64,000 nt of DNA, taken from IMG/VR virus record IMGVR_UViG_3300012953_000013, positions 64,001-128,000 of that record, one strand, 5' to 3'. The first letter of the stretch is position 1, and every line of letters begins with the position of its first letter. A model generated the notes under the pieces. It did no database searches. It was not told the origin of the DNA and saw only the letters and a list, made by a program, of their open reading frames with translations. The DNA comes from a virus. Shown here piece after piece: positions 12,653 to 35,442 of the stretch. Made by a program: the position numbers and the translations under genes.

Positions 12653-13365
12653 TTTAAAACCTTTGAAACTTTTTCTGCATTTTTAAATCTACCTTCGATA
12701 ACAGACCAATTAAATTGTTTCATCATCGCATATATAAACGCTTTTTTATCATCTAAATAATCTCTATAGTAAGCATGCTCCCACATGTCCATGACAATAA
12801 CTGGGTAGCAGTTAATTGGAACATGCAGACTGTGAAGGTCTACTACTACATTCATATACCTTTTTAGAAAACCATTATAAACTGTAATTGCCCACCCATT
12901 TCTAGAAGCTAGGCAGCAAGCAATAAAGTCTTTTTGCCACGCATCAAAAGTTCCAAAATCTCTTTCGAGCCTAATAAATGAAAGGGTGTCCATCGAAACT
13001 TTAGAATGGAGGTCTGATATGTTTTCAAAATAAAGAGCATGCAGAAAAGCAGCATTGCAATTGTAAGTCTCGTCTTGCTTTAAAGACCTGAATTGAGAGT
13101 CTCGAGAATTTACTCCATCTCTGTCAACTGTGTCTAATTGAGCAGAAACTTCATTCAGAGTTTCAACATATTGCTCGAAAAGATTCTGATGAGACTGTTT
13201 TGCTTTGTTACTCAAAAGTTCTGTTTGCAAGCTAAACTTTTTAGCTTGAGTTACATAAGCTTCTTGTAGGCTTTCTGATGGAGGAAGGCCGAGGCCCTCT
13301 CTAATTGTGGTTACCACTTCTTCAGAGAGCGTATTTGTTTTTTTGTCATTTTTGTCGTTGGCCAT
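12649..13365 (-). CDS. sod: Fe/Mn superoxide dismutase with N-terminal extension
   Basis: HQNLFEQYV, LHALYFEN, DFGTFDAWQKDF, GWA, DMWEHAYYRDY; four metal ligands appear present. Confidence 0.9.
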   Translation of the reverse strand: MANDKNDKKTNTLSEEVVTTIREGLGLPPSESLQEAYVTQAKKFSLQTELLSNKAKQSHQNLFEQYVETLNEVSAQLDTVDRDGVNSRDSQFRSLKQDETYNCNAAFLHALYFENISDLHSKVSMDTLSFIRLERDFGTFDAWQKDFIACCLASRNGWAITVYNGFLKRYMNVVVDLHSLHVPINCYPVIVMDMWEHAYYRDYLDDKKAFIYAMMKQFNWSVIEGRFKNAEKVSKVLK

Positions 13366-16625: not shown

Positions 16626-17183
16626 TCAGCTTTTAAGAGCGTTCCAAAGCTCCCACTCCAAACCAATCTCTTTCAAGTGATTCTTTATTTTCTTTTCTCT
16701 AGAAGACCAATCATTTCCCTTTAATTTTCTCGAATGCCACTCTATAAACAATTTATCTACTCTGTTTATTACGCCAGTCTCTATCAAATCTTCTAATACG
16801 ACATACTCAGCGCCCTCAATATCCAGTTTAAGATATATTAAGTCGTTTTCTTCTGTGTTGCTTGAAATAAAAGTAGACAATCTCACGGTCTCTACTTTAG
16901 AAGGATTTTTTCTATCTAGCTTTCCAGAATTTTTCTCAGCAATCAAAGTAGAGCCGCCAGAGCCCTTTCTTTTGTCTACCAAAAAATCCATTGTGCCGTC
17001 TTCATTCCAGACCGCTTTATTAATTAGTTCGTGATTTTTAAACCCTTCATACTTATTATTCCAAGCACTACGAGGTTCAAATGTTATTATACGAAAAGAT
17101 TTATCTTTGTCGTGATTTTTCCTAAAGTGTCTCACTGAACACCCGTTATTTCCACCTGCATCTATAAAAAATTTTCTCGACAT
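16626..17183 (-). CDS. FkbM-family SAM methyltransferase
   Basis: FIDAGGNNG, FEP, NKAVW, LKLDIEGAEY. Confidence 0.85.
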   Translation of the reverse strand: MSRKFFIDAGGNNGCSVRHFRKNHDKDKSFRIITFEPRSAWNNKYEGFKNHELINKAVWNEDGTMDFLVDKRKGSGGSTLIAEKNSGKLDRKNPSKVETVRLSTFISSNTEENDLIYLKLDIEGAEYVVLEDLIETGVINRVDKLFIEWHSRKLKGNDWSSREKKIKNHLKEIGLEWELWNALKS

Positions 17184-17587
17184 TAAAAAGCCCTGACTTT
17201 AATTCCAGATTTTTTTAGTATATCTACGCCAGACATATCTCTATAAGCTTCTTTATAGATAACTTCATCAATCCCTGAATTAACTATTGCTTTCGCGCAC
17301 ATTCTACACGGAGATAGTGTTAAATAAAGCTTTTTCTTCTTGGGATTATTATAATCTAGTTTTATTAAAGCGTTAATCTCAGCATGGAGCATTCCAGAAT
17401 TCCCAGGAACTTGTGATTCTACTTCATTGGGTCCGCCTGCATAGTTTCCATTGTATCCAATCGCTAAAACTTGGCAATTATCTTCAGTTACGATCACCGA
17501 TCCGACTTGAAATCTAGGGTCGTAAGACCTTTTAGCAATAGCGTGACAAAAGTCCATCCATATCTCATCCCAATTTGGTCGACTCAT
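17183..17587 (-). CDS. dCMP deaminase
   Basis: HAEINA and SPCRMCA zinc motifs, IGYNG. Confidence 0.9.
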   Translation of the reverse strand: MSRPNWDEIWMDFCHAIAKRSYDPRFQVGSVIVTEDNCQVLAIGYNGNYAGGPNEVESQVPGNSGMLHAEINALIKLDYNNPKKKKLYLTLSPCRMCAKAIVNSGIDEVIYKEAYRDMSGVDILKKSGIKVRAF

Positions 17588-17591: not shown

Positions 17592-18317
17592 TTAATCTCC
17601 TAAGTTCTCAAACTCGTAAGGGTACATTTTTAAAAATTTCAAATACTGCTGTTGAACCTTTTCTTTTTTTCGTTGGCCAGATTCTCCCATATAGTAAGTT
17701 GAATAGTGGCGACGATCTTTTCTAGTTTTTACCCATATTCCCCATTTTTTTAATTCTACGCGAGGGGCTTTAAGAATATACAATAACTCATTGAAGTCTT
17801 CTTCTAGATTCTCAAACCTTAAAGTATGATCTATACAGGGCTTACCATCTAGCAAATAATATTTCTGCCATGGCAAAAACCGGTCTTTAGTCTGAAAAGA
17901 ATTGTTGACGTGCTTTGGATCTTTATCGACAAGATTTTGCTTTTTGTTGCTCCACCAAAAAGAAGATACTTCTGCATCCCATGGATTTCTAATTACGGCA
18001 ACTTTCAGATAATCTTTCCAAACAGAGTTGCCCCATTTTTTCTTGAATCTCGTTTGCTTTAAGATATTTTGCACTTGCCTTGGTGACCAATGTTTACCGT
18101 AACGCTTTGCAAGAGCAAATGCATCTTCGTCAAAAGACTCTTTTTTTAAAGTTTCATAGTAACTTACATTGTCATAAATACTTTCAATATCTTTTTTATT
18201 CCTAAAACACCAGATGTCAGACCCAGCGCAAATCTCAGCTAAAGAAACTTGAACGCTAGTAGAACCTGTTTTTTGAGGATTAAAAAATATAAACTTGTAT
18301 TTGTGATTTACTATCAA
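17592..18317 (-). CDS. Sulfotransferase family protein
   Basis: FFNPQKTGSTSV (5'-PSB), IRNPWDAEVSSF (3'-PB), RFENLEEDF. Confidence 0.8.
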   Translation of the reverse strand: MIVNHKYKFIFFNPQKTGSTSVQVSLAEICAGSDIWCFRNKKDIESIYDNVSYYETLKKESFDEDAFALAKRYGKHWSPRQVQNILKQTRFKKKWGNSVWKDYLKVAVIRNPWDAEVSSFWWSNKKQNLVDKDPKHVNNSFQTKDRFLPWQKYYLLDGKPCIDHTLRFENLEEDFNELLYILKAPRVELKKWGIWVKTRKDRRHYSTYYMGESGQRKKEKVQQQYLKFLKMYPYEFENLGD

Positions 18318-19213
18318 CCCTTATCTACCTTCGGTTTAGAAGTCTTTGCTGCGCGGCGTTTTCGTGCAGTTTTTGGCTTGTCGAATAGGTCTTCCACATG
18401 CTGTCCTACTGGTAACTGGAATCCTGCAGCTTTTTTATGACCACCTCCGCCAAACCTCTTTGCTATTTCTGAAACATCAACAGTTTCGTGAAATGCCCTA
18501 AGACTTACTTTGGTTTCTCTTGCTTCATGGTCCCAATACCAAATCATTGCAAAATCTCAGTCTGGGCTTAACCTGGAGCCAATCTCTGACATCCAATGAG
18601 AGGCGTTTACAACCATAACATGCTTATCGTCCATTTTTCTATGAGAAGCTTTTTCGCATACTTTTTTAATAACTGTTTTTGAATATGCTAAAACATATGA
18701 TCCACGCTTTACTGCATCATCGAAAACTGAATCATCTTCAAATTTCTCAAACTCTTCAAACTCAAAAGGTACCATGTCAAACGCAGCAGCAAATTCTTTT
18801 GAATATGGAAGTTCCCACTTCCATAAATCTCTGTCCTCAATATAATTGATAAACTTTGGCGGCTCTTTTCCTGGGTGAAAAAAGTCCCACGCTAATCTAG
18901 CGCCTGAGTGCTTCATATCGAATATAGTGTTGCTGATATCGTGAAGTTCTACCACTGCAGATTTATGGTGGTCTATTACAATAAGCGCAGCAGCTTCCTC
19001 TATCATTTGTTTTGTTGTAGCGTTATCAAAAGAAAAATCTAAAATTGCTACATGCTTCCCTTTAATATCAGGGGGAGAGTCTCCATGCTTACAAGCATGA
19101 TACTCGGCTCTATTGCCAAGTAATTTCCATGCAGAATAAGCTGCACCGAATCCGTCAGTACAGTTAGCATGGTAAATTACGCAATCAATAAGTGATGGTT
19201 CTACTATAGGCAT
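18314..19213 (-). CDS. DHH/DHHA1 phosphoesterase interrupted by one in-frame TGA (18557-18559)
   Basis: YHANCTDG and IDHH in 18557..19213; SLR..FGGGGH..AAGF in 18314..18547; junction reads CCA GAC TGA GAT TTT GCA ATG in one frame. Confidence 0.8.
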
Positions 19214-20251: not shown

Positions 20252-21233
20252 ACCCCCACCAAGAAAAAGTCTTTTCCAGACCGCTTATTAAACTATATTT
20301 TGGGAAGAACCCTAATTCTCTCTCTGCTTTTTTAGTACATGCTAAAGTGTGTTTTACGTCTCCAGGGCGAACTGGAGCATTTACAATCTCAACGCCAGGA
20401 AACTTTTCTTTAAAAATATCTAAAATATCATTATTTGAATAAGATTTTCCTGTACCTATATTAATTCTATCACCACAGAAATTTTGTTCACGAATAGCTG
20501 CTAAAATATTTGCCTCAGCAACATCTTCTACAAAAACCATATCTCTAGTTTGAGTGCCATCGCCATCACTTCTTAATGGCAAACCCTTTTTAACTTTATC
20601 GCACCAAGAAACAACAGCAGTCGAGTAAGGAGAATCACCGTATTGGTTAGGACCAAATACGTTAAAATATCTTAGACAAGCAATATCTAAATCATAGGCC
20701 TTAGAATAAAGCCGAGCCCATTCTTCTACATTTAATTTCTGAAGTGCATAAGGACTATTGGGATTTTTCCCGTGATCTTCTGTTGTGGGGAGAGACCACG
20801 GATCTCCATATACAGAGCAGCTTGAAGAAAATACGATCCTTTTGACATTTCCAATAGAGTGGGTAAACAATTGGATTGTTTTCATAAAATTTTCGTGTGT
20901 AGTTTCTACGGGATTCTGAATGGAGTACTCAACTCGGGGATTTGCAGCGCAGTGAAAAATCACGTCATATCTTTGGTCTACGATTCTTCTTATTACTTCT
21001 TGACTTACAAAATCTCCAACTAAAACTAAAATTTGGTCTGGAAAATTCTTGACTTGTTGTTCAAAAATATGCCCCATTTGAGTCGGTACTGTTCTAAAAG
21101 AGTGATCATCTAAGAAAGCATAATCACCATTCGACATGTCATCTACAATCTCAACTTCCCAGCCGTTATCTACTAATTTTTTTGAAATACATGACCCGAT
21201 AAATCCACAACCACCAGTTACAAGCGCTCGCAT
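20241..21233 (-). CDS. NAD-dependent nucleotide-sugar epimerase/dehydratase
   Basis: GGCGFIGS, SSS, YALQK (YxxxK), LRYFNVFGP, TRDMVFVEDVA. Confidence 0.9.
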   Translation of the reverse strand: MRALVTGGCGFIGSCISKKLVDNGWEVEIVDDMSNGDYAFLDDHSFRTVPTQMGHIFEQQVKNFPDQILVLVGDFVSQEVIRRIVDQRYDVIFHCAANPRVEYSIQNPVETTHENFMKTIQLFTHSIGNVKRIVFSSSCSVYGDPWSLPTTEDHGKNPNSPYALQKLNVEEWARLYSKAYDLDIACLRYFNVFGPNQYGDSPYSTAVVSWCDKVKKGLPLRSDGDGTQTRDMVFVEDVAEANILAAIREQNFCGDRINIGTGKSYSNNDILDIFKEKFPGVEIVNAPVRPGDVKHTLACTKKAERELGFFPKYSLISGLEKTFSWWGFDE

Positions 21234-22396
21234 AATACAATTTCCTCCTTCAAGTTATTTTGCATTAAAAAACTTTCTTCTGCCAATTCTAAACCGCCAT
21301 TTAAATATTCAACTACTTGAGTTGTCATATCTCGAGCTGTACATGTTGGAACATTTTGCGCTATTACATTCAACTGTTTTCTATCCGCCATTTCAAAATC
21401 ATGGGGTAAACCCATCATATGCAATAACTCTCTTATTGACATTCCTCTATCTTCTTTGGGATGAACAAGATGAGTAAGAGTTCTTCCAACTATTGCGTTT
21501 GTTCTGTTGTAGTAATATCCCGGAGAAGCGTCCATAAATCTTCCGCCAGACTGAACTTTTTTATAAATAGCTCGAAGCCTGCGATGTTCGGCAGTTTCTT
21601 CTATTCCTCTTTTCTCGATCCATTCAATACACTCTTTTAGTAATTCATTTTCAGCTAAATAAGAAAATATTGAATGAATAGAACCTGAGTCGTTATTTTT
21701 AACAAAATGCTCATGAGTTACACCTAGATGCTGTAATACAAAAGCATACGAATCAAAGTTTTCTGAAATTTTTCCTTCGATATTAAATTGATCTTGTAGT
21801 GAAGCTTCAGCTGGGATCTCTTCAATATAATCTGCAAAAGACGGCATTGGGGTATTGAAATAATTCAAGAGTGGCGGATTTGAATCTCTCCAGAAAAAAT
21901 AAAATGTCCTCACCCTTCTTTGCGGGATGCCATGACGCTGAGTATCTGTCTTATAGAGAGAAAAGGTGTATCCATGCTCTCTAGCTAGACCTTTTAATTT
22001 ATCTCGTACGTACGCGCCCGAATTTGTAAAAAGGCCGGGGGCATTCTCGCCCCAAAAAACTCTTGGACGAACCTGACCCAAAACGGTCCTTGCAGATTCA
22101 TACATCCAATAATTCTTTCCCTCTCTTGTATCTTTGCTTCTAGAAGTATTAAGCTGGCTCAGTCCAGCACATGGACAAACCGAATTTATAAAATCTATAT
22201 CACCACCAGGAATTTTGCCACCTTCATCTAAAACAATTCTTGGAACATCTTCCCAGTAATCTGTAAGATATTTTTCATTTGCTCCAAAAGCAGAATAACT
22301 TAAGTGGTATTCTGGTTTTTTATTTGTCGCTTTATAACACCCTATGGCGCTTCCTCCGACCAGAGGAATAATAGTTCCCCACTTTAAGTTATCCAT
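21218..22396 (-). CDS. C5-cytosine DNA methyltransferase-fold protein with degenerate SAM motif
   Basis: Motif IV CPCAGLS, VI ENAPGL, VIII GIPQRRVR, IX RELLHMMGLP; motif I reads IPLVGG rather than FxGxGG, motif X AQNVP. Confidence 0.75.
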   Translation of the reverse strand: MDNLKWGTIIPLVGGSAIGCYKATNKKPEYHLSYSAFGANEKYLTDYWEDVPRIVLDEGGKIPGGDIDFINSVCPCAGLSQLNTSRSKDTREGKNYWMYESARTVLGQVRPRVFWGENAPGLFTNSGAYVRDKLKGLAREHGYTFSLYKTDTQRHGIPQRRVRTFYFFWRDSNPPLLNYFNTPMPSFADYIEEIPAEASLQDQFNIEGKISENFDSYAFVLQHLGVTHEHFVKNNDSGSIHSIFSYLAENELLKECIEWIEKRGIEETAEHRRLRAIYKKVQSGGRFMDASPGYYYNRTNAIVGRTLTHLVHPKEDRGMSIRELLHMMGLPHDFEMADRKQLNVIAQNVPTCTARDMTTQVVEYLNGGLELAEESFLMQNNLKEEIVLCERL

Positions 22397-22397: not shown

Positions 22398-23264
22398 TCA
22401 GTCTTCTTCCTTTATTGTATATCCGTATTCTTCAAAATCAACTTTATAATCTACTGCTAACATTTTTTTAATTTTTTCTGAAATGATATTCTCAGTTTTC
22501 ATGTAGCGTATTTTTACAATATTTGAATGAGGGAGAACAGAATCACTCGAAATTATATCTCTATCTTTGAGATCTTTTAATAGATTTTCAAGATCTTCAA
22601 ATTTATAAATTTTTGTTTCAGGAGAAACATACCATCGGCATGGGTTTCTCTGCACACCGCCTCGGCCAAGGTCTGCAGTATTTTTAAAGTAAAATTCTAA
22701 CTGAGCGCCTGGTTCCATATTTCGAAAATCTAAACCGGTTTTTTCATAAAAATTACGGATAGTATATAGAATTTGCGACTCCGCTCTCTGTTTTCCTGGC
22801 AGCTCTATTAGGCTTTCAATATATTTTTTAATTCCAGCATGAGCTTTTTCAACTGGGGCATCTCTAACAGAAACAAATTCGTCTTCATGCGATACTTCTA
22901 AGCCTAATCGATGAAAATGATCCATAAAGTATTTGTCGTCATATGATATTTGCCCCTTTAACATTTTCCACACAGGTTCAACTTCAGTTTCATAATAAAG
23001 GTAGTTAAACCACATATTAAAATGAGAAACAACTCTTGTGTAGGGATGCCTGACAACTGTAAAAGTAAAGCCTGCGTTAACTGCTTCTTTCCAGTCTCTC
23101 CAAACACTATATACTTGGTGTCCTCCACCCACAGGAAAGTAATCTGGTTCTTTTATCCTGGTCCAGCCATTTTCTTCAATTAATTTTCTGACAGACATAC
23201 CTCCACATTTTGGTATGTGGATAAAATGAATGGTCTCACCATTTCTTTCGTAGAGTGGCATCAA
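22398..23264 (-). CDS. Sulfotransferase family protein
   Basis: FIHIPKCGGMSV, VRHPYTRVVSHF. Confidence 0.8.
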   Translation of the reverse strand: MMPLYERNGETIHFIHIPKCGGMSVRKLIEENGWTRIKEPDYFPVGGGHQVYSVWRDWKEAVNAGFTFTVVRHPYTRVVSHFNMWFNYLYYETEVEPVWKMLKGQISYDDKYFMDHFHRLGLEVSHEDEFVSVRDAPVEKAHAGIKKYIESLIELPGKQRAESQILYTIRNFYEKTGLDFRNMEPGAQLEFYFKNTADLGRGGVQRNPCRWYVSPETKIYKFEDLENLLKDLKDRDIISSDSVLPHSNIVKIRYMKTENIISEKIKKMLAVDYKVDFEEYGYTIKEED

Positions 23265-24133
23265 TCACCAACCTTATAATCGAATAACGAATAGTCGTCA
23301 CCATATAAAAACAAAAATACACTTTGAAAGCTTTGTGAAAACTCGCTTAGTGAAAAAGATTCTTTTTTAGATAATGAATATAGCTTTTTATTCTCTACAG
23401 AGAGCCCACGCTTGTACGACTCTTGATTTATTATATTTTTTTCTAAAAGCCTCTCTAATAGATTTTCTTTTTCTTCTAATTTAAAAACTTCAACAGTGGG
23501 ATCTACATAAAGTCTAGAAGGAGTGGGATTACCACCCCCGTGATTTATTTTATGGAACTTATGTTTCAAAAAACTATATAAAAAATTCTCTAGAATAGAT
23601 GATGAATACTTTATGCCTGAAATTTCTTCCCAAGCTGCAGCTAAAACCCTATGTTTATGAATCATATTAGCGTTGCGATCTTCAGATATTAGAGTTGTCA
23701 ATTTCATAAAACTTTTTTGTAGTTCTTCTGGTTTTAAAATAATATCTTTAGGGTAAGAGATACCAAGTTCAGAAAACACTAAATCAATATAATTTAGAAT
23801 AACCCAGTTATATTCGTGCTCTATCCCGTTAATTTGCATCTCCAAAACTTCATATAATCTCTCCATGTAGAGATCACCGTTTGTAGACATCCACATATTG
23901 CAGTGAGATACGATCCTGTCAATCGGGTTTCTAACTAAAGTAAATTTAAATTCGCACTCTTGTATTGCAGGAAAATTTCCCCAACATATTCTCGGTACAT
24001 GCGGAATCCCGCCCACTTCTGCTGGCAAATACTCCCAGTTATTGTCTGTCAAAAGTTTTTTTACAGATGTACCGCCACATTTAGGGATATGAGCAAAAAA
24101 TATTTTTTCATTATCTCTAATAAACGTTGGCAT
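23261..24133 (-). CDS. Sulfotransferase family protein
   Basis: FAHIPKCGGTSV, VRNPIDRIVSH; tandem paralog of previous gene. Confidence 0.8.
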   Translation of the reverse strand: MPTFIRDNEKIFFAHIPKCGGTSVKKLLTDNNWEYLPAEVGGIPHVPRICWGNFPAIQECEFKFTLVRNPIDRIVSHCNMWMSTNGDLYMERLYEVLEMQINGIEHEYNWVILNYIDLVFSELGISYPKDIILKPEELQKSFMKLTTLISEDRNANMIHKHRVLAAAWEEISGIKYSSSILENFLYSFLKHKFHKINHGGGNPTPSRLYVDPTVEVFKLEEKENLLERLLEKNIINQESYKRGLSVENKKLYSLSKKESFSLSEFSQSFQSVFLFLYGDDYSLFDYKVGD

Positions 24134-25638
24134 TACAGTGCTCGATAAATTTTATCTTCTTTAGCGACGACTCCCTTTTTTACTAACTTCTGGAGAATCA
24201 TCCAACTTTCTTTCCAAGTTCCGTTTTGCTTATAGTGAACCAAACCCTTAGATTCAATTACCTTAGCAACCTCAGCGTGTTTACAAGCTCCACCAAGGCT
24301 ATTCATTATTGAAAGTATTTCAAGCTCTTTATTTGTAGCTGAAAAATCTAAACCAGTAGATTCAGACGGTGGTACAGTTGTCACTTCAGGACCTGAAGGT
24401 TCGGGGAGAGATTCTTGTTCCGGAACTTTTGATTCTAGGTCTGGAACACTATCTTCTTTCATAAATCCAAGCTTTTGCATTATGGATTTTGGCGTAATAA
24501 TCATTTTAACTTCCTCTTTTGAAATTGGGGCTGAAGCCCTTCGATTAGCAAGTTTCTTGTCTTCTCTAAGCTTTCTGTAAACACCAAACTGACAACAAGA
24601 AATTTCGCAACCAAAATTTGTAAAATATCCAAGCTCTGAAACTTTTTTCATATAGTAATCTGATTTATCAGAGCTCTTTAAATCAAAAAAACTGTTTTGA
24701 TGACGTCTTATAGCATTAATAAGCTTTTTTCCAACTTTGTCGTTAATCGAATGACCGCGATGTTCATAAAACCAGTTTATTGCATTCATCGCACCGACTC
24801 CAGGAACCACATAATCGTCATCTTCATCAATGTTTCCCGGCATTCCCTCAAATATTAAATTACCAACTTCTGGCATACGAGCCAAGTTACAGCTAAAGTG
24901 ATAACCGTAATAATTTCCAATCCCTTTATATGAATTTAGAAATTTAAATGACTCTTCCATCGTTGGCTTAGTTTTATAAAATTCAACCCATTGAGGGCCC
25001 AAAAAAGTAAACCAAAATAAAATATCTGATGGTCTAAGCATTCTTTTGGACCGATCGATGGCTGATGTTTTCTCCAAAATGTCAATTGGTGATCCTACAC
25101 TTCTAGCGTAGTTTCTAGCTGAGGTTTGTAAGCTGGTCCTAAGCTCAGTTGTTCCATAGATTTTTTCTTTATTTTTAACTACTTCTTCTATGTTTACGCA
25201 GAGTTTCTCTAGATATTTTGGATCATTGATAAACTTTTTATATACAACAAAATCATCTCCTGTACCCTCAACCATCATTTTAAGGGTCTTCGATGGCCCA
25301 TAGAATTTCACAATTGCAGCGTTAATAAGCTTATCTTCAAAAGTTGCTTTGGGGTTATAGAATAGGTTCTCGTTTAACCAGATAATCTCATCGTGAAAGC
25401 TACGGTTAGGGTGGAAGTAGGGAACTGACTTTCCATCAACTATAAACCCAAGCTTATACAAAAGAACTTTGTTTGGTTCGTGTTGAAACGTATCAAATGT
25501 GCAAGACTTTGCAAACCTAACAAGATATTCTCTTCGATTCAACTCTTTAATAAAATGAACAAAATCATCTTTCTTATACTGAGGGATTTCATCGAAGAGT
25601 TCTTCGTCTGTATATTTTAAAAGCTCTCTATTGCTCAT
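24133..25638 (-). CDS. 5-hmdU DNA kinase helical / aGPT-Pplase1-like protein with C-terminal winged-helix-like domain
   Basis: YFHPNRSFHDEIIWL, GIGNYYGYHFSCNL, VVPGVGA..AINWFY, FGCEISCCQFGVY match the family pattern as I recall it; Pro/Glu linker then wHTH-like tail. Confidence 0.65.
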   Translation of the reverse strand: MSNRELLKYTDEELFDEIPQYKKDDFVHFIKELNRREYLVRFAKSCTFDTFQHEPNKVLLYKLGFIVDGKSVPYFHPNRSFHDEIIWLNENLFYNPKATFEDKLINAAIVKFYGPSKTLKMMVEGTGDDFVVYKKFINDPKYLEKLCVNIEEVVKNKEKIYGTTELRTSLQTSARNYARSVGSPIDILEKTSAIDRSKRMLRPSDILFWFTFLGPQWVEFYKTKPTMEESFKFLNSYKGIGNYYGYHFSCNLARMPEVGNLIFEGMPGNIDEDDDYVVPGVGAMNAINWFYEHRGHSINDKVGKKLINAIRRHQNSFFDLKSSDKSDYYMKKVSELGYFTNFGCEISCCQFGVYRKLREDKKLANRRASAPISKEEVKMIITPKSIMQKLGFMKEDSVPDLESKVPEQESLPEPSGPEVTTVPPSESTGLDFSATNKELEILSIMNSLGGACKHAEVAKVIESKGLVHYKQNGTWKESWMILQKLVKKGVVAKEDKIYRAL

Positions 25639-26047
25639 GCAAATCCTCTAAGTGCCTTCTGTTTTCTTTAGCAACGTGAGGGTTGTTAACATGAATCACT
25701 TTCGTTCCAATATTCCAGGTTTCTACTTCATTTAATTTTCTTTCTATCTCAGCTTTTTGAACTTCATCATCTTCAAAAAAATATTGAACGCTGAGTCCTG
25801 CTCTATGGAGAATCTTAATAGTTTCTCCTTTGTGCCACCCTGAACTCTGACGAGTTTTTTCTGAGTAGTCACATTGATTAAAGAAAACTGGGTTATTAAT
25901 TCCATTACGACGAAGAAAAGCCAAAGTTTCAGCTTCTTCTTCATAACTACGACCAGTGATAATTACATCTCCTGGGCCTGGACGAATTCCACAAACTCCA
26001 TCGCCAAGATGGATAACGCCATCAATATCAAAACCGTTAACCTTCAT
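25628..26047 (-). CDS. Small capless HAD phosphatase
   Basis: FDIDGV, ITGR, HK, FEDD. Confidence 0.8.
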   Translation of the reverse strand: MKVNGFDIDGVIHLGDGVCGIRPGPGDVIITGRSYEEEAETLAFLRRNGINNPVFFNQCDYSEKTRQSSGWHKGETIKILHRAGLSVQYFFEDDEVQKAEIERKLNEVETWNIGTKVIHVNNPHVAKENRRHLEDLHEQ

Positions 26048-26756
26048 TGAATTCTCCTCTTTTTCTTATAAAAAACTGAGTGCCTAAAATCATCATGTCT
26101 AAAGACCTTGTGTCACACCAAACCCTATAATGAGGAGATAGAGCCTGGCCGTTTCCTGGGTTGAGCATTTCGCTTAAACCAATTAGTTTCGTATTCCCAG
26201 TCTTCCAAGCAATTAAAGTATTCTCGTGTGGAGGAGTCAAACCAATAGACATTGCAAATTGATTGACTGCTTCTACAGCTCCCCAATCTGATTTTTGTGT
26301 ATAATCATCTCCAGTTATCCAACCGCCCGGCTTAAGTTTTGGCCACCAACTCTCAAGATCTATTTTTACAGCTTCATACCTATGGTCGCCATCAATGTAA
26401 ATCCAGTCAAAATAATTGTTAGAAAAATTCTTAGCAGCGTTTTCAGAAAAATCTCTGTATACAGAAATCTTGGTTTCATCGCTGCTCATCTCATCAGCCC
26501 AATTTTTTACTTTTTGAAACCTAGCATCTTGTTCTTCTTGAGAGTCTTTTGCGTGTTGGTCGTGCTGATCTGTTTGCTGCACCCAAGGGTCTACTAAGTG
26601 AATTTCTGACGGGTTTTTGGAAAAAATCTTGCGAGAAAATGCGCCATTGAAAACACCTATTTCTGCACACTTAGCTCCCTGGGCTATTTTTTCTAAAACC
26701 CTGTCTTCGTAGACTCTTTCTCCTGGATTTTCTTTTTTGAAATTATCTCTAAGCAT
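26037..26756 (-). CDS. Class I SAM methyltransferase (Methyltransf_24-like)
   Basis: AEIGVFNG, VDPW, YIDGDHRYEAV..DL..W..L.PGG.I.GDDY. Confidence 0.85.
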   Translation of the reverse strand: MLRDNFKKENPGERVYEDRVLEKIAQGAKCAEIGVFNGAFSRKIFSKNPSEIHLVDPWVQQTDQHDQHAKDSQEEQDARFQKVKNWADEMSSDETKISVYRDFSENAAKNFSNNYFDWIYIDGDHRYEAVKIDLESWWPKLKPGGWITGDDYTQKSDWGAVEAVNQFAMSIGLTPPHENTLIAWKTGNTKLIGLSEMLNPGNGQALSPHYRVWCDTRSLDMMILGTQFFIRKRGEFNEG

Positions 26757-27468
26757 TATCTTTCCTAAAGAAAGTATAGTCTAAAACTTTCGTTGTTCCA
26801 TACATTAAAATTGGATGTTCTACCTTCTTCCACTTAGACTCTGGAAAAAACAGACTAGGATATTGATCAAAAGGAGAACGAGTGTTATGAAATTCAATGC
26901 CAACAATTTCAACAAAATCCGGAATTTTTGGAATAGAATCTAGGATATCGTACTCTTTGCCTTCAATATCAATCTTTAATATTTCTGGTCGGTATTTTTC
27001 TAAAAGACTAGAAAAAGAAATCCCGGGGACTGAAATAGTAGTAGAAGATGCATTCCTTCTCCGAAGAGTTGATGAAGAAACAGAATTACGCTTGGATTTA
27101 GCGTAGTGAAAAACTACTTCATTTTCATCTTCTTCACACACTGCGGCGTTAATACACTCTACACCCGGGGCATTAATTTCCAAAAGTTGAAAATTATGAG
27201 GGCAGGGCTCGAGTGCAATAATCTTCTTTGCGCCGTTATCCAAACACATCTTAGCAAATCCACCAATATTGGCCCCAAGGTCTAATACGGTTTTGCCTTC
27301 AACTGGAATGCATGTGTAATTGTCTATACACTCCTTAATTGAACTCAAATCAAATGTATCGGGACGATACCACATCCCTTTTCTTGAGTTCCATTTTATT
27401 TCGCACTCTTCGAAGGCTGGTACAGCTGGATTAAACCGCATGCCCGTCTGTTCGTGGATTTTAGCCAT
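26749..27468 (-). CDS. FkbM-family SAM methyltransferase
   Basis: VLDLGANIGGF, LEP, NAAV, LKIDIEGKEY. Confidence 0.85.
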   Translation of the reverse strand: MAKIHEQTGMRFNPAVPAFEECEIKWNSRKGMWYRPDTFDLSSIKECIDNYTCIPVEGKTVLDLGANIGGFAKMCLDNGAKKIIALEPCPHNFQLLEINAPGVECINAAVCEEDENEVVFHYAKSKRNSVSSSTLRRRNASSTTISVPGISFSSLLEKYRPEILKIDIEGKEYDILDSIPKIPDFVEIVGIEFHNTRSPFDQYPSLFFPESKWKKVEHPILMYGTTKVLDYTFFRKDNA

Positions 27469-28658
27469 TAATCTACCTCTTTGTTATGAGATGGACAAAT
27501 CTTATAAAGCTCTTCAGCGTCGTAAGAAGATGTCTGCCTCTTTGTGAATCTGGTTAATTGTCGCTCTGAAAGTGCATCACATTCATAAAGCGTTTCGCTA
27601 AACATAAGTTGTTGTGGAGGAGTTTTTTGCGTAAATGCTGACGGGCCTCGAAGAGCACCAACAATCCCCATTTCTCTAGCGGTCTTGAGATAACGAACTG
27701 CATCAATAACAACTCCGCCAGAGTTTGGAGAATCAATTACAGAGAGTCGAGCATCAAAAGTTACCGGAGCGCCAAGAAACCCTTCCATCTCTACTCTAAA
27801 ATTAGCAACCTTGTTATCTCCATAATAGCGAATGTATTCTGAAGGTCCCGCATGGAGAAATGACTCATCTGGGTCGACTCCCCGAATTACATGTTGAGAG
27901 CGAATAACGTTTTCCTTAGATACCTTTTTATACTTGAGGCGCGATTGATCGACCATGTTCAAGAAATCAGTGTTTCCGCCAACATTTCTCTGAATATGAG
28001 CTTTAACATTTAAGCCGCGAGCAAAGGCCAGTTCTTGTAGCATTTGAGAAAGAATAGAAGCTCCAAACTGTGATTTCATATCATCACCAATTAATGGAAT
28101 TCCAGCATCGATAAACTTTTGTTCCCACTCTGGATTAGAAGCAATAAATACGGGAATGCAGTTTAGTAGAGAAACACCAGCATCTAGACAAGCTTGGGCG
28201 TAATACTCTGTAGCTTTCTGAGACCCAACTGGAAGATAATTGATTAGAATATCAACCTTGCGATCTTCTAGTATCTGAACCACATCTACGGGCTCTTCAT
28301 TTGAAACTCTGAAGGCTTCATCATCTGGATAATCACTCATCAAGCTTGGTACCCCATCAAGCACTGGACCCATTTGAACTATTGGACCATCAGGTACATT
28401 CGCTTCGTATTCTGGAGTACAGTTTGGCTTAGCCCACATTGCTTCCCTAAAACACTTACCGACTTTTCGCTTATCTACGTCAAATGCAGCCACAACCTCA
28501 ATATTCGCAACTGAGTATCCGCCAATTCGAGACTTCATTACTCCGTCTCTTTCTTGGCCGGCTGTATATCCAGCATAGTATGTTAAACCTTGATAAAGCG
28601 AATTTGCGCAGTTTCCGACGCCTACAATTGCTACTCTAATATTTTGCTTTTTACTCAT
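27468..28658 (-). CDS. ino1: Inositol-3-phosphate synthase (MIPS)
   Basis: VAIVGVGNCA, FDVD..KVG, NYLPVGS, NCIPVFIAS, GDDMKSQFGA, GGNTDFLNM, SK..SK, DSPNSGGVVIDAVR. Confidence 0.93.
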   Translation of the reverse strand: MSKKQNIRVAIVGVGNCANSLYQGLTYYAGYTAGQERDGVMKSRIGGYSVANIEVVAAFDVDKRKVGKCFREAMWAKPNCTPEYEANVPDGPIVQMGPVLDGVPSLMSDYPDDEAFRVSNEEPVDVVQILEDRKVDILINYLPVGSQKATEYYAQACLDAGVSLLNCIPVFIASNPEWEQKFIDAGIPLIGDDMKSQFGASILSQMLQELAFARGLNVKAHIQRNVGGNTDFLNMVDQSRLKYKKVSKENVIRSQHVIRGVDPDESFLHAGPSEYIRYYGDNKVANFRVEMEGFLGAPVTFDARLSVIDSPNSGGVVIDAVRYLKTAREMGIVGALRGPSAFTQKTPPQQLMFSETLYECDALSERQLTRFTKRQTSSYDAEELYKICPSHNKEVD

Positions 28659-30190: not shown

Positions 30191-30421
30191 TTACCCCAAC
30201 TTTGATTCTGCGGCTTCTACCATTTCTCCAAGACTGTCGTCTGAAACATCCAGCCTAGACTTAATCTTAGCAATACTAATTGCCGCTTTTACAGCTTTGA
30301 TGTCTAGCTTAGACTTATAATCATCAAATAGCTGCTTCTGCTCTTCTGCAAGAAGCTGCTTTTCCCCATCAATTCTCATAAGCTGTTCTACCAAATCTTT
30401 AATATCGTCTTGTACGCTCAT
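30191..30421 (-). CDS. GapR/DUF2312-like small DNA-binding protein
   Basis: IKDLVEQL.RI..EK..L.EE.KQLF..YK...D.KA.K pattern. Confidence 0.5.
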   Translation of the reverse strand: MSVQDDIKDLVEQLMRIDGEKQLLAEEQKQLFDDYKSKLDIKAVKAAISIAKIKSRLDVSDDSLGEMVEAAESKLG

Positions 30422-30431: not shown

Positions 30432-30614
30432 TTATTGAAACTTTACGTAATCTTTAAGCAAACTGTCAATGCTTTTAATAACTTGTTCACAAAGCACTGA
30501 AGTATGCTTCGTATTCATAACTGAAGTTGAAGAATGCTTCTCTTCAAGCCCATCATAGAATTCAATAACGTGCCTTCGAAGCTTCACCAACTTTTCAATC
30601 TCTTCATTTTTCAT
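30432..30614 (-). CDS. Small hypothetical protein
   Basis: ATG 30614 (MKNEEIEKLVKL) after AGGAG RBS. Confidence 0.55.
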   Translation of the reverse strand: MKNEEIEKLVKLRRHVIEFYDGLEEKHSSTSVMNTKHTSVLCEQVIKSIDSLLKDYVKFQ

Positions 30615-30888
30615 TACTTCTCCTTTTTTCATTGATGTAATTTTGCCATCCCCCAATATAAGCAACAGCGTCTAGTAAATTGTCTTCTTTAAAATTGTAA
30701 GACTGCCTAGAAAACTTGAGAGCAATCATGGCGATAAACATATCGTCCGCGGTCCAGTTTCGACCTGACATCCCACTAGCAATCATTGCAGCGCGCTCAA
30801 AACCTTCGCCCAAGGGACCATATTGACGCTCTTTTTCTTCTGAGCGATTATTGATTATTTCATCTGCTTGTTTTAGAATATTAGCCAT
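30604..30888 (-). CDS. DUF6378-like small helical protein (possible nucleotide pyrophosphohydrolase)
   Basis: A..I...R.....YG......A..........M.ALK..R......DN..D...Y pattern. Confidence 0.6.
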   Translation of the reverse strand: MANILKQADEIINNRSEEKERQYGPLGEGFERAAMIASGMSGRNWTADDMFIAMIALKFSRQSYNFKEDNLLDAVAYIGGWQNYINEKRRSNEK

Positions 30889-31750
30889 TGAAAATAACTC
30901 CCTTTATTTTGTTTACGTGATCAAATATTTCAGATTTTTCCATATCACTAGATGGAAGCTCTGCTGACAAAGATAAAAGCTTTTTATAAGTTAGATCTGG
31001 CTTTAAAACCGTTTTATCAGTTTGGGGATAATGACCACCCAAAACGCTTACATAATAATTGTCTAAAATCTTATCCATCATCTTAAAGTGTCTCTCATAA
31101 ATGTGAAAACTTCCTGCATTATGATAATATGTCCCAAGATGGAGATTCATGCCGTGATCGTTTAAGTGATTAAGCATCAACTGTTGAAAAAGAGCGAATG
31201 TAAAAACATCGTTGCAAAAACCAAAAATGGCATCATTAGATCTCATATAGACGCCCATATCCAAAACACCTTCTCTTATAAAAAACTGAATATATTGAGT
31301 ACATGGATAATCTTTAGAATTTTTTTCTTTATGATATGGCTGGTTAATTGCTATAGTTGCTCTCCTGGTGTCTGGATCGCTTACTAGCTCATTTACAACC
31401 CAATTCCATTGAGAAATATACATTTTGTTCAAAACAGGAAAAATATAAGACCCATAATTTGACTCTGCTTCGCCAAATTGGTCTTGGATATCAGCCCAAA
31501 TAGATGCAAGCTTAGATATGTTGTTTACTTTTTGGTTTGAAGATACGTACCAAAGCCACTCTGCAATAGCATAATTTATGTTAAATTTTCGAGCAGGAAC
31601 AATAATATCTAGCTGTTCAGGGTTCTTAATTTGAAAGGAAACAAATGTTCTTTCTAGCTGTTTAGAGCCCCTAGAATGAACTATATTTCCGGCCATTTTT
31701 AGTTTAGCTAGCTCTTCAACGAAAGCTTCATTTAGATTATAGTACATCAT
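30881..31750 (-). CDS. Thymidylate-synthase-fold dCMP hydroxymethylase-like enzyme
   Basis: AEWLWY, SNYG, RRA, PCT, RSNDAIFGFCND, GSFHIYERH; Asp at the base-specificity position as in T4 gp42; ATG 31750 after AGGTGG. Confidence 0.8.
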   Translation of the reverse strand: MMYYNLNEAFVEELAKLKMAGNIVHSRGSKQLERTFVSFQIKNPEQLDIIVPARKFNINYAIAEWLWYVSSNQKVNNISKLASIWADIQDQFGEAESNYGSYIFPVLNKMYISQWNWVVNELVSDPDTRRATIAINQPYHKEKNSKDYPCTQYIQFFIREGVLDMGVYMRSNDAIFGFCNDVFTFALFQQLMLNHLNDHGMNLHLGTYYHNAGSFHIYERHFKMMDKILDNYYVSVLGGHYPQTDKTVLKPDLTYKKLLSLSAELPSSDMEKSEIFDHVNKIKGVIFNG

Positions 31751-31766
31751 TTTTACCACCTATAGA

Positions 31767-31796: not shown

Positions 31797-34700
31797 TTAT
31801 AATTCGATTATTTTGAGCCTGTGCCACTTGGTACTACAGCCAAAATCGTTCTTATCAATTTCCGCGACGCAGAAGCTGTAGGGTTGAATTTCTGCATCTT
31901 TCGGAGTTCCCCAACAAAAGATTTTTGAAATTTTTCCAGTAGAAGCTATGCCGTTTAGAAGAAAGTAAGGCTTTTTGTTTTTCGTTAGCTTTGGCACCGC
32001 AGCAGTTACCATAAACCAATAGTAATCTCTTTCTTCCCAGTCATCTATTGATCTAATATTTTTACGCTCTAGCTTTTTCATAAGCTCTTCTGAAAGTAAC
32101 GCCTCAACATTTACAGAGCCAAGCAGGTTACTCTCAAACTCCATGAGCTCTTTTTGAGACCATTCAGGGATTGGAACTGCTTCTCCAAGAGCCTCATAGA
32201 AATTGGTCATGCCGCGGCGAGGTTCTCTCTTGGTACGCTTACGAAAATCACCATATCCAGAGCTCACTACTTCAAGCATCTGCTTATGGGAATTAAAAGT
32301 TTTGTCTTCACCCACAAGCCCAATAGAGCTAAGTCCCCTAATTTTAATCAGGGACTCAAGCGCTCTCTTATTAAACTTCGAATGTTTCCAAGAGCCATCT
32401 TCATTCCACAAAAGATTCTCAATAGAAGAATAAGGGCGGTTTAACAAAATTTCATCAACAGCTGCAGAGCCTATACCTTTGCAAGATAAGAATGACGGCA
32501 TAAGCTTTTTATCACCAACACTAGTCCAGGTCTTTTCAGCATAGTTAATGTCGATTGGAACAATCTTGAAACCCAGCCCTTTTACTTCACTGACGGCTTT
32601 TGCCAACTTTTTGGGATTTCCTGAAGCAGCTTCGAGATAAGCTTTAATCCACTCTTCTTCATAATAAGTCATTAGCCAAGCGCAGTGATAAGAATTTACA
32701 GCGTAAGATACTGCGTGAGACTTATTAAATCCATAACCTGCAAAGAAGAGAATCTTTTCATAAAGACTTTTAGCAATAGATTCACTGACACCGTTCGAAA
32801 CAGCACCCTTAATGAACTGGTCTCGAAGCTTTTTAGCTTTATCGATATTATCACTTCCAGAGCTAACAGGCTTCATCATTTTTCTCATAGCGTTACATTC
32901 GTCTTTTGGAATGCCGGCTACATGATGGCAAAGGCCCATAACTTGCTCTTGGAAAATAATACATCCATAAGTCTCTTTAAGGACATCTTCAATTAAAGGG
33001 TGCCCATACTCAACCATATCTGGGCGCTTCTTATTTTGAATGTATAGTTTATCAACTTTTGCGCCAAGAGGCCCAGGGCGATAAATAGAAGTTAGAGTAG
33101 CGAGGTCAACTATAGACTCAGGCTTGGCTCTTTTAAAGAGTGCTTGAGCACCTCTTTGAGTACATTGAAAAATGCCAGCCCACCGACCTGCGTGATAAAT
33201 ATTTTGATATACTTTTTGGTCATCAAAATTTATAACGTTTGGAGCAATATTATCATTATACCAACCCGAAACCTCTTCAAAGCCTGGATTTTCATTGCCC
33301 TGCTTTTTAAGAATTTGCTCAATAGTTCTTTCAATTATCCTTAGGGTTTCTAGGCCAAGCAAGTCAAACTTAATCCAGCCAAATTCCTCAAGGTGCTTAT
33401 TTGTCATACCTTCAGTCCAAGGAGTTTGTAGTTCGCCTCTGGCCATAATCAAAGGCATTTGCTGAGGGATGTTTTCTGAAATGATAACACCTCCAGCATG
33501 ACGACCTAGAGCTTTATTTTGCTTAAACAAAACTCCAATTGGTTCAATAACCTCCGGATGCTTTTCAAGATAAGTTCTAAGAGAGTCTGAATACTTGATT
33601 GCCTCTTTGATGCTTATGTCAAAACTATCTTCAGCATCATCATCACTCTTGCGGCCACGACGGACATCTCGCTCAAGCGGAGCAAGGGCCTTGTTTACTT
33701 CTGAAAACTCAATACCATAAAACCTAGATACATCTTTAATCAAACTCTTTAACTTAAATGTGTTATAGTTCGAAATTGGAATAATGTTGTCATTTCCAAA
33801 CTTTTCTCGAAGCAATTCAATCAGTGCATCGCGGTCAGCGACATCATTATCAATATCAGGCGCATCAGAACGATCAATGCTCAAAAATCTTTCAAACAAT
33901 AATCCATATTCGATAGGGTCGATATCTGTAATATTCAAAACATAGTTCACTAATGAACCAGCACCAGAACCACGACCAGGGCCAACAAGCATTTTATCTC
34001 TTGCAATATCGATAATTGCTTTCATTGTCAAGAAATATTCAGCAAAATCCTTTTCTTTGATGATTGTAAGCTCCCACTTAAGCCTCTCAATATACTCTGG
34101 GCGAGTGTGCAAGCCCCTATCTTTTAGACCAGACTTGCAAGCTTCTAGTAGTGCTTTATTAGCGGTTGTGTCTTCTGGAATAACATAAGACGGAAGCTTC
34201 ATCTTTCGATCAGGGTGAATATCACCAATCATTTCGTGAGCAACATCGTGAGTGCGCTCAACAGCATCAAACATTAGCTGATCATCATAAAAATCATGGC
34301 CTTGCTTAACTTCTAGGTAGGTATCCCAAACTTGCTGAGCATTTTTTGGGTATAGCTCGCACTTAAGGTCATCTTTTGACTTTGGCAAACTATCTGGATT
34401 GAACTCTTTATAGTTCAGCCACCCAAGCTTCTTATAAAGTTCGCGCTCTTTCCAGTGATCTGGTGAAGCATAGTGAGAATCGCAAGTAACAATCAGCTGA
34501 TTTTGCATTCCATTACGGTTTGCAGCTTCAATGATTGCTCGATTTACCAAATGCTGCGCAGAAAGCTTATTGAATTGAAGTTCAAGCATAACATTTTCTA
34601 GACCGACAGCGTCGACAAGCTGGTCAATAGTATTGCCTACGCCGGATTGGACAGATTCAAAAATAGATTTATCGTTCAAGAGATCAGGGGTAAGTCTGTC

Positions 34701-35387
34701 AAATTCATACCCTTGGAGACGGCTGAAGGCTTCATATGCTAGAGGTCCGCCAATACACGCGGTGGAGATCATTAAATGGCCACCCTCAGCAGCTTTTTTA
34801 ATCATCTTATAGTCCACTCTAGGAAATCTATAGAATCCGTCCATATAACCTTGGGATACTAACCCAAAGAGTCTGCGAAGCCCTTCAGAAGTCTTTGGAA
34901 GGACAACTAGGTGGTGACGACGTTTGATAGGATCATAAAACTTTGATGATTTTGTTTCTTCTTCATTTTCAACAGTAAGATTAGCGTCTGCGGTGTCTAA
35001 ATTTATTGTCTCATCATCTCCATCTACAATCGCGATAAGCTTTGTTCTAAGATGCTCATGAGAATCAATGATTGCTTTAATTGCAGATTTGTCTCCTTTT
35101 TTTGCAGCCTTTTTAATTTCGTACTGCGCGCGCCAGAGCTCTAAGTCTGGATGTACATACATTTCGCATCCAGGAATAAACTTCATATTTGCGCCAGCTT
35201 TAATCAACTTTTGTGCATGCAAGTAAGCATGAGCAAACCCGTTCATGTGGCCATGGTCTGTAAGAGCCCACCCGTCTAGTCCGTTTTCTAAACAAAAGTT
35301 GATATGCTCTTGTGGATAGCCTAGACCATCAAATGTGCTAAAACCAGAATGCGCATGCAAACCAAAAAATCTTGTTGGGTATTTCAT
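31797..35387 (-). CDS. dnaE: DNA polymerase III alpha subunit (family C)
   Basis: PHP LHAHSGFS..DG, GRGSGAGSLV, PDIDND, RHAGGV, KFDLLGL, YGFNKSHAVSY; start 35387 because track start 35426 lies inside the promoter. Confidence 0.95.
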   Translation of the reverse strand: MKYPTRFFGLHAHSGFSTFDGLGYPQEHINFCLENGLDGWALTDHGHMNGFAHAYLHAQKLIKAGANMKFIPGCEMYVHPDLELWRAQYEIKKAAKKGDKSAIKAIIDSHEHLRTKLIAIVDGDDETINLDTADANLTVENEEETKSSKFYDPIKRRHHLVVLPKTSEGLRRLFGLVSQGYMDGFYRFPRVDYKMIKKAAEGGHLMISTACIGGPLAYEAFSRLQGYEFDRLTPDLLNDKSIFESVQSGVGNTIDQLVDAVGLENVMLELQFNKLSAQHLVNRAIIEAANRNGMQNQLIVTCDSHYASPDHWKERELYKKLGWLNYKEFNPDSLPKSKDDLKCELYPKNAQQVWDTYLEVKQGHDFYDDQLMFDAVERTHDVAHEMIGDIHPDRKMKLPSYVIPEDTTANKALLEACKSGLKDRGLHTRPEYIERLKWELTIIKEKDFAEYFLTMKAIIDIARDKMLVGPGRGSGAGSLVNYVLNITDIDPIEYGLLFERFLSIDRSDAPDIDNDVADRDALIELLREKFGNDNIIPISNYNTFKLKSLIKDVSRFYGIEFSEVNKALAPLERDVRRGRKSDDDAEDSFDISIKEAIKYSDSLRTYLEKHPEVIEPIGVLFKQNKALGRHAGGVIISENIPQQMPLIMARGELQTPWTEGMTNKHLEEFGWIKFDLLGLETLRIIERTIEQILKKQGNENPGFEEVSGWYNDNIAPNVINFDDQKVYQNIYHAGRWAGIFQCTQRGAQALFKRAKPESIVDLATLTSIYRPGPLGAKVDKLYIQNKKRPDMVEYGHPLIEDVLKETYGCIIFQEQVMGLCHHVAGIPKDECNAMRKMMKPVSSGSDNIDKAKKLRDQFIKGAVSNGVSESIAKSLYEKILFFAGYGFNKSHAVSYAVNSYHCAWLMTYYEEEWIKAYLEAASGNPKKLAKAVSEVKGLGFKIVPIDINYAEKTWTSVGDKKLMPSFLSCKGIGSAAVDEILLNRPYSSIENLLWNEDGSWKHSKFNKRALESLIKIRGLSSIGLVGEDKTFNSHKQMLEVVSSGYGDFRKRTKREPRRGMTNFYEALGEAVPIPEWSQKELMEFESNLLGSVNVEALLSEELMKKLERKNIRSIDDWEERDYYWFMVTAAVPKLTKNKKPYFLLNGIASTGKISKIFCWGTPKDAEIQPYSFCVAEIDKNDFGCSTKWHRLKIIEL

Positions 35388-35414
35388 ATGTCTCTCTTGA
35401 TAATGTATAGTTCT

Positions 35415-35442
35415 ATTATAACACACTGAGACGTATTTTTCA
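35415..35442 (-). promoter_or_regulatory. TGAAAA-N16-TATAAT promoter of dnaE
   Basis: Consensus -10 at 35415-35420, element at 35437-35442. Confidence 0.7.

Follow-up and report, generated by a model that had tools for sequence, protein, structure and literature searches.

What does a protein that carries the family name of a DNA kinase do in a phage whose hydroxymethylase appears to be of the cytosine type? The question is raised by an open reading frame (ORF), here called P0001, at positions 24133-25638 of a 64,000-nucleotide stretch of viral DNA (IMG/VR record IMGVR_UViG_3300012953_000013, positions 64,001 to 128,000), referred to below as the window; all features of the window located in the text lie on the minus strand. 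P0001 is open throughout and encodes 501 amino acids, and 154 homologues in a large protein collection indicate that the gene is real. A first-pass annotation had described it as a 5-hydroxymethyldeoxyuridine (5-hmdU) DNA kinase-like protein with a winged-helix tail, paired with a cytosine-type hydroxymethylase. According to our analysis, P0001 is very probably a DNA-base enzyme of the PF18723 clade that is tied to 5-hydroxymethylcytosine (5hmC). The strongest clue to its role, missed by the earlier annotation, is a near-obligate linkage to genes for an inositol-3-phosphate synthase (MIPS), a phosphatase of the haloacid dehalogenase (HAD) type and a protein with an SGNH fold.

Architecture and family of P0001

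The AlphaFold model of P0001 has a predicted local distance difference test score (pLDDT) of 87.5 and shows an all-helical protein that ends in a winged helix. Profile, pLDDT and structure matches agree on the three-part pattern read earlier from the sequence, i.e. a helical core of the Pplase1/HMUDK type, a Pro/Glu linker and a C-terminus resembling a winged helix-turn-helix domain. The core (residues 1-380; 24499..25638) resembles helix-hairpin-helix (HhH) glycosylases and represents a divergent PF18723 clade. It is followed by a disordered linker rich in Pro, Glu and Ser (residues ~381-433; 24340..24498), with a pLDDT <50 over residues 396-433. The tail (residues ~430-501, of which 434-501 correspond to 24136..24339) reaches a pLDDT of about 85-97 and has the three-helix bundle and beta wing of a winged helix-turn-helix domain; it superimposes on MecI with a Z score of 9.8 and a root-mean-square deviation (rmsd) of 2.6 over 65 residues (VIA-align), and further matches include Fur (Z 9.4), Z-alpha (Z 8.9), BlaI and dozens of other domains of this type. 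This tail is confined to the closest clade of P0001; most homologues have about 400 residues and cover 75% of the query.

PF18723 (HMUDK_hel, aGPT-Pplase clade 1) is the one significant Pfam family in P0001 (residues 91-328, E 5.7e-6), although the score of 26.3 bits at a gathering cut-off of 25 is marginal when taken alone. The assignment becomes firmer with the relatives. A profile of the P0001 clade, built from 49 homologues, reaches 65 clusters when searched against 1.84 billion representatives, and all ten distant relatives scanned pass PF18723 at 38-195 bits. The family is precomputed on most close homologues of P0001, and 26 of its 30 neighbours in the ESM Atlas are PF18723 clusters. 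Foldseek searches against viral models (BFVD) return the 5-hmdU DNA kinase gp186 of SP10 and proteins of PhiW-14, phiRSL1 and Lucky3, together with proteins named "Pplase1"; the matches to Pplase-type models have E values of 4e-5 to 3e-2 and a probability of 1.00. Among solved structures, the core (residues 23-375) is best matched by the 5-phosphomethyldeoxyuridine glycinyltransferase gp46 of PaMx11 (8z2m; Z 9.4, 228 residues, rmsd 4.4), and the queuine-salvage glycosylase DUF2419 is matched at Z 9.0. A Foldseek search of PDB with the whole model yields nothing at E <=1e-3, just rows of winged-helix domains and weak ones of Archaeoglobus fulgidus AlkA (E ~2, probability 0.1), and the profiles A1 (the P0001 family) and A3 have no meaningful match among PDB sequences. 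Neither PF18724 (ADDT, the amino-acid:DNA transferases) nor PF00730 (HhH-GPD) matches P0001 at E up to 10. The anticipated profile match to aGPT-Pplase1 is therefore present, and the plain HhH glycosylase that the first-pass annotation had named as an alternative finds no profile match, the best structure and profile matches being of the Pplase type. The best reading is that P0001 is a divergent clade-1 aGPT-Pplase that would act on a pyrimidine base in DNA.

About 40 positions are invariant in the P0001 family. They include Glu345 and Cys349 in the motif E-I-S-C-C (residues 345-349; 24592..24606), which are retained in all 72 viral ORFs covering the motif, down to 24% identity. This ExxxC motif, which lies close to where the core ends, aligns with E291/C295 of gp55 from phage M6 (hhalign, MAFFT). 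The same motif is present in M6 gp51 (E243/C247), at a presumably equivalent C-terminal position. In M6 gp51, mutating the conserved Cys or the neighbouring Glu abolishes activity, and the Cys and Glu of ViI gp247 have been mutated as well (PMC8989533); for the Cys of gp51, an addition to C6 of the pyrimidine is proposed (PMC8989533, PMC11472151, PMC13458397). We regard the motif, invariant in the P0001 family and common to gp55 and gp51, as a good though indirect indication that P0001 acts enzymatically, with chemistry of the gp51 type. A second nearly invariant element is the Gly-rich loop GIGNYYGYH (residues 239-247; 24898..24924), in which G239, Y243, Y244, G245, Y246 and H247 are kept in at least 76 of 78 viral ORFs, and which by eye may be read as HhH-like.

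A PF18723 protein without a kinase

PF18723 owes its kinase name to gp186 of phage SP10, a fusion in which a P-loop kinase is followed at the C-terminus by a Pplase domain of clade 1 (PMC5889632, Table 3). In a control scan of phage M6, gp54 was recovered as PF18748 (E 7.7e-18), gp51 as PF18724 and gp55 as PF18723 (E 8e-56); gp54 is the experimentally shown 5-hmdU DNA kinase, a P-loop protein, and gp51 is the glycine:DNA transferase (PMC5889632; PMC8989533). No clade-1 member has a demonstrated activity of its own according to the same two papers. In P0001, neither PF18748 nor any other P-loop family is matched at E up to 10, which rules it out as a kinase. The label "kinase-like" had thus to be given up, and a misleading annotation, the "kinase helical domain" on a protein without a kinase, is corrected.

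The search was extended to the 184,866-base record (~71% complete), where we found neither a PF18748 kinase nor a PF18724 transferase, and to 80 viral loci from IMG/VR, which were chosen only by P0001-like peptide patterns and whose proteins are 24-72% identical to P0001; none of these loci contains an M6 gp54-like kinase or a gp51-like transferase. The route through a phosphomethyl-cytosine intermediate, as suggested in the first-pass annotation, is hence left without a supporting enzyme.

Evidence for a cytosine-derived base

The only homologue of thymidylate synthase (TS) found in the record is encoded at 30881..31759, and its best solved relatives are the cytidine monophosphate hydroxymethylase MilA (7.7e-30) and the deoxycytidine monophosphate (dCMP) hydroxymethylase of T4 (2e-20). 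The diagnostic features of the cytosine-type enzymes are a retained C146, an acidic residue at L143, a retained D169 (not Asn) and the replacement of N177 by Asp (PMC13326640). Compared with ThyA of Escherichia coli (Ec), the window protein has L143D, C146, D169 and N177D, as in T4 gp42. At the Ec positions 143/146/166/169/177 it reads D-C-R-D-D, RB69 gp48 reads E-C-R-N-D, and the deoxyuridine monophosphate (dUMP) hydroxymethylases read D-C-R-D-N; those of SPO1-like phages and of M6 keep N177, unlike the window protein. A 5-hydroxy-dCMP synthase of the RB69 type (D169N) was considered as well and is ruled out by the retained D169.

The signature is not a peculiarity of this phage. All 23 fully readable non-ThyA TS homologues located <10 kb from P0001 relatives in the IMG/VR loci read D-C-R-D-D, and a 24th, partial one shows just N177D. 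The same signature occurs in Aeromonas phage 31 and in locus L009. A dUMP-type hydroxymethylase was seen neither in the record nor among the TS homologues linked to P0001 relatives. Judging from these residues, the phage probably makes 5-hydroxymethyl-dCMP (hm-dCMP) by a gp42-type enzyme and builds 5hmC into its DNA. The earlier pairing of P0001 with a cytosine-type hydroxymethylase is borne out, and so is the view that the context is non-standard: a PF18723 protein sits with a cytosine-type TS homologue, and no kinase or transferase was found.

Linkage to MIPS, a HAD phosphatase and an SGNH protein

Three further genes of the operon account for the conserved module. P0122 (25628..26047), which overlaps the start of P0001 by 11 nucleotides, encodes a minimal HAD-type phosphatase of 139 amino acids (phrog_415, phosphatase part of polynucleotide kinase, E 2.8e-8). 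MIPS (27468..28658) matches Ino1 of Mycobacterium tuberculosis (1gr0, E 1.3e-90) and TIGR03450 (E 9.5e-103, below the equivalog cut-off). P0121 (28682..29782) is a two-domain protein whose model has a pLDDT of 89. Its N half corresponds to phrog_17781 and has an alpha/beta domain (residues ~10-165) for which the ESM Atlas gave no usable match, and residues 166-366 adopt an SGNH/GDSL fold with an invariant GDSH block I (Z 12.4 to GDSL esterases, Foldseek E 1e-4). P0121 has 817 homologues in the large protein collection, none of them with a Pfam family.

Within the 80 loci, a MIPS homologue lies near the P0001-like gene in 76, a P0121-like gene in 74 and a P0122-like HAD gene in 74, and all three occur together in 71. 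They share the strand of the P0001-like gene, from which they are separated by a median of 1.4-3.5 kb. Where a member is missing, the reason is in most cases the edge of a contig or the fused form from Aeromonas phages described below. When the P0001-like proteins are clustered at 60% identity, eight of nine clusters contain the trio.

There is also a looser side to this association. MIPS and a HAD gene are present without P0001 or P0121 in two phages, Stenotrophomonas phage Moby and Caulobacter phage Cr30, so that the two genes for inositol supply form a unit that can be separated from the P0121/P0001 pair. The P0121/P0001 unit tracks the gp42-type synthase. In Moby, MIPS and a small HAD-like gene are located inside a 7-deazaguanine DNA-modification cluster with FolE, QueC, TGT and QueE (L095:7210-12624); this cluster suggests that inositol may decorate other modified bases too.

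The phage of the window is not T4-like; it encodes a DnaE-type polymerase, DnaB, RecA and ribonucleotide reductase. Because the module is present in T4-like as well as DnaE-type phages, it has moved between phage lineages. The polymerase itself is a 1209-residue protein (31797-35426), and a separate ORF of 395 residues (54672-55859) resembles a fragment of a family A polymerase (PF00476, 35 bits).

A fused form and a symporter in Aeromonas phages

Using phrog_17781 and tblastn, we found that Aeromonas phages 31 and 44RR2.8t, as well as the metagenomic jumbo contig L013, encode a single protein of 791-795 amino acids whose N-terminal half resembles P0121 and whose C-terminal half resembles P0001. 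The fusion indicates that P0121 and P0001 act jointly. In both Aeromonas phages the protein is ORF233c (795 amino acids, annotated as hypothetical), whose core is 42% identical to residues 1-375 of P0001 (E 6e-86), matches the P0001 model in Foldseek (E 1.4e-27) and contains the same ExxxC motif. Aeromonas phage 31 also has a gp42-type TS homologue, as does the phage of P0001. ORF233c differs from P0001 in being fused to the P0121-like half and in lacking the winged-helix tail.

No MIPS was found in Aeromonas phage 31. Directly upstream of its fusion gene, ORF234c (L001:6286-7809) encodes a sodium:solute symporter of the SGLT family (Pfam 7e-53; Vibrio vSGLT 9e-104), which, from its family membership, may import the co-substrate. 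Synthesis followed by dephosphorylation in most phages and import in Aeromonas phages would both give a free sugar-like polyol, as expected if the polyol is the co-substrate.

Proposed coupling of inositol to 5-hydroxymethylcytosine

We propose that P0001 is a Cys-dependent transferase that couples inositol to 5hmC in DNA, a reading to which we would give an even chance. The family and fold of P0001, its conserved Glu/Cys pair, the cytosine-type synthase, the gene linkage and the failure to find a kinase are observations; 5hmC in DNA as the substrate, inositol as the transferred group, the formation of an ether and the part played by P0121 are inferred. According to this model, 5hmC would be incorporated into phage DNA from gp42-type hm-dCMP, and P0001 would act on it after replication, together with P0121. 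Anchored by its winged helix, P0001 would flip 5hmC out of the duplex, and Cys349, assisted by Glu345, would add to C6 of the base by analogy with the amino-acid:DNA transferases. The oxygen substituent on the 5-methylene would then leave, either directly or after esterification or activation by the SGNH protein P0121, and a hydroxyl of myo-inositol would add, to give an inositol ether of 5hmC in the same manner as the serine hydroxyl in the ViI enzyme. The inositol would come from MIPS and the HAD phosphatase, and in this phage it would be modified further by the methyltransferases and the three sulfotransferase-like enzymes.

Several observations weigh against this model. The family assignment starts from the marginal PF18723 score given above, and hhalign of profile A1 against single M6 sequences, which we used just for the local alignment of the ExxxC motif, is weak (probability 22% for gp55 and 0.1% for gp51). 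An activating enzyme for the hydroxymethyl group was not identified. M6 gp55, the single clade-1 member that has been tested, is dispensable for the reaction in vitro (PMC8989533), so that clade 1 may be non-catalytic. As MIPS and HAD genes occur without P0001 in Moby and Cr30, inositol need not pass through P0001. The C5-methyltransferase-like protein from the same operon (21218-22396, see below) could be the coupling enzyme instead of P0001. Finally, the genes for 5hmC and inositol together point to an inositol-bearing DNA base, but the literature searched contained no report of inositol on DNA, no function assigned to the clade of P0001 and nothing relevant on base modification in Aeromonas phage 44RR.

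Alternative explanations

The strongest rival, which we nevertheless hold to be unlikely, regards P0001 as a non-catalytic targeting subunit: the PF18723 core and the winged helix would only recognize or flip modified pyrimidines for a catalytic partner, i.e. the SGNH domain of P0121, the C5-methyltransferase-like protein or a methyltransferase, and so mirror the "helical domain" of the SP10 kinase. This would account for the dispensability of M6 gp55 in vitro, for the extra DNA-binding tail of P0001 and for the repeated fusion of PF18723 domains to catalytic partners, namely to the kinase in SP10 gp186 (PMC5889632), to the SGNH protein in Aeromonas phages and to FkbM. What it explains less well is the conservation of Glu345, Cys349 and about 40 other positions down to 24% identity, which goes beyond that of a usual binding module and extends to the motif that is catalytic in the sister family.

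It is also conceivable, but in our view rather improbable, that 5hmC is first activated as a phosphate or other ester by an unrecognised enzyme, and that P0001, not itself a kinase, displaces the leaving group. The characterised sister family works in this way on 5-phosphomethyl-uracil (PMC8989533, PMC11472151). Moreover, P0121 takes the fusion position that the kinase has in SP10 gp186 (PMC5889632), and its N-domain matched no known fold. Against this stand the failure to find PF18748 in the incomplete record or a gp54-like kinase in the 80 loci, the lack of a P-loop match in P0001 itself, and the SGNH fold, which is a fold of acyl transfer and not of kinases. We also considered the sulfotransferase-like enzymes of the window as the general activator, with sulfate as the leaving group; as none of the 80 loci carries homologues of these genes, this candidate is ruled out.

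A third possibility, already raised in the first-pass annotation, is that dCMP deaminase (17183..17587; PF00383, E 2e-22) converts hm-dCMP into hm-dUMP, so that the DNA carries 5-hydroxymethyluracil (5hmU) and P0001 acts on this base. Elsewhere, PF18723 proteins are found in phages that hypermodify thymidine (PMC5889632), and the deaminase belongs to the operon. However, this enzyme is a usual companion of gp42-type enzymes and accompanies them in T4-like loci too. T4 has a dCMP deaminase, yet it carries 5hmC, not 5hmU. The same operon also contains a thymidine kinase, which argues against thymine exclusion, and every TS homologue linked to a P0001 relative is of the cytosine type; with neither a kinase nor an amino-acid:DNA transferase nor a dUMP-type hydroxymethylase found, we regard the rerouting of hm-dCMP as very improbable. 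Hardly more credit is due to the view that P0001 is a DNA glycosylase, unrelated to inositol, which removes a base from unmodified host or damaged phage DNA: the fold class is glycosylase-like, with the DUF2419 and weak AlkA matches, but PF00730 is not matched, the Pplase-type proteins are closer, and the tight operon linkage to MIPS, HAD and SGNH genes would be left unexplained.

Neighbouring genes

Besides the conserved module, the operon holds extra methyltransferases, a GalE-like epimerase, a cupin and a C5-methyltransferase-like gene. Two methyltransferases are recognized by Pfam, Methyltransf_24 (26037-26756) and FkbM (26749-27468). FkbM homologues occur in 59 of the 80 loci and are fused to P0001-like domains in P0092, P0261 and P0265.

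Directly downstream of P0001 are two tandem sulfotransferase-like genes (22398-23264 and 23261-24133; PF03567), and a third paralogue resembling Sulfotransfer_2 is located at 17592-18317. All three keep both motifs of the binding site for 3'-phosphoadenosine 5'-phosphosulfate (PAPS), e.g. HIPKCGGTSV and VRNPIDRIVS. No adenosine 5'-phosphosulfate kinase was found in the phage record. The presence of phage sulfotransferases within a DNA-modification operon is unusual. Because the related loci do not contain them, they look like lineage-specific tailoring enzymes outside the conserved module. A cyclitol on 5hmC that is both O-methylated by FkbM and class I methyltransferases and O-sulfated by the three PAPS-type sulfotransferase-like enzymes is imaginable, but we consider so elaborate a product quite doubtful.

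The C5 DNA-methyltransferase-like protein (21218-22396; PF00145, 5.9e-19) keeps the Pro-Cys motif (CPCAGLS), ENAPG and QRRVR; its motif I is atypical (IIPLVGGSAIG). Homologues are found in 19 of the 80 loci. In a 5hmC genome this protein cannot methylate C5 and may do other chemistry.

A GapR-like DNA-binding protein (30191-30421) and a DUF6378 protein (30604-30888) are encoded between dUTPase and the TS homologue, and DUF6378 co-occurs with the module in 57 of the 80 loci. DHH and DHHA1 domains are split over the adjacent ORFs 18314-18547 and 18557-19213 (218 and 77 amino acids, the longer product being named first), which could represent a split or frameshifted phosphoesterase. The window also encodes an Fe/Mn superoxide dismutase-like protein (12649-13365; Sod_Fe_C, 2.8e-18).

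Relation to known systems and significance

The closest frame of reference is clade 1, i.e. M6 gp55, ViI gp160, PhiW-14 gp72 and the C-domain of SP10 gp186. These proteins and P0001 share the profile, the predicted fold and the C-terminal ExxxC, and both are located in phage DNA-modification clusters, often fused to a catalytic partner. The relationship is remote, however, the profile of the P0001 clade reaching no more than the 65 clusters given above. The genes that accompany known clade-1 members encode a dUMP hydroxymethylase, a 5-hmdU DNA kinase of the P-loop type and an amino-acid:DNA transferase, none of which was found with the P0001 clade; its partners are instead a dCMP hydroxymethylase, MIPS, the HAD phosphatase and the SGNH protein, and P0001 adds the winged-helix tail. 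Clade 2 (PF18724: M6 gp51, PaMx11 gp46 with structure 8z2m, ViI gp247 and PhiW-14 gp109) shares the Glu-x3-Cys motif with P0001, and ViI gp247 provides a precedent for a hydroxyl nucleophile that forms a C-O-C link to the 5-methylene (PMC8989533, PMC13458397). The clade-2 enzymes use 5-phosphomethyl-uracil made by a kinase, whereas the context of P0001 is cytosine-derived and no kinase was found.

The glucosylation of 5hmC in T4 is similar in its logic. Both phages have a gp42-type hm-dCMP synthase with the same signature, accompanied by dCMP deaminase and dUTPase, and in both a hydroxymethyl handle would be decorated after replication, in T4 by alpha- and beta-glucosyltransferases. Unlike in T4, the conserved core of the P0001 module contains no enzyme for a nucleoside diphosphate-sugar donor; decoration would fall to a Cys enzyme of the Pplase type and to an SGNH protein, with a cyclitol from MIPS and HAD as the likely donor.

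Known hypermodifications of phage pyrimidines comprise sugars added to 5hmC or 5-hydroxycytosine by glycosyltransferases, and amines or amino acids added to 5hmU by a kinase and a transferase. The P0001 gene set would join both, with a Pplase-type Cys enzyme, a cytosine-derived base and a cyclitol donor without nucleotide activation; what we propose as new is that group transfer of the Pplase type is directed here at a cytosine base and draws on a cyclitol as donor. The clade is widespread among uncultured aquatic phages, which represent two or more types of replication (T4-like phages with a family B polymerase, and the DnaE-type jumbo phage of the window), and it also occurs in cultured Aeromonas phages. 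If the further tailoring in the phage of the window were real, sulfate esters on a methylated inositol ether of cytosine would be a DNA decoration never described. If the coupling reaction itself is true, it would reveal a DNA base of a new class and an enzyme activity, likewise new, that could serve to label 5hmC, would give the unexplained clade-1 Pplase family its first function, and would explain how these phages evade restriction.

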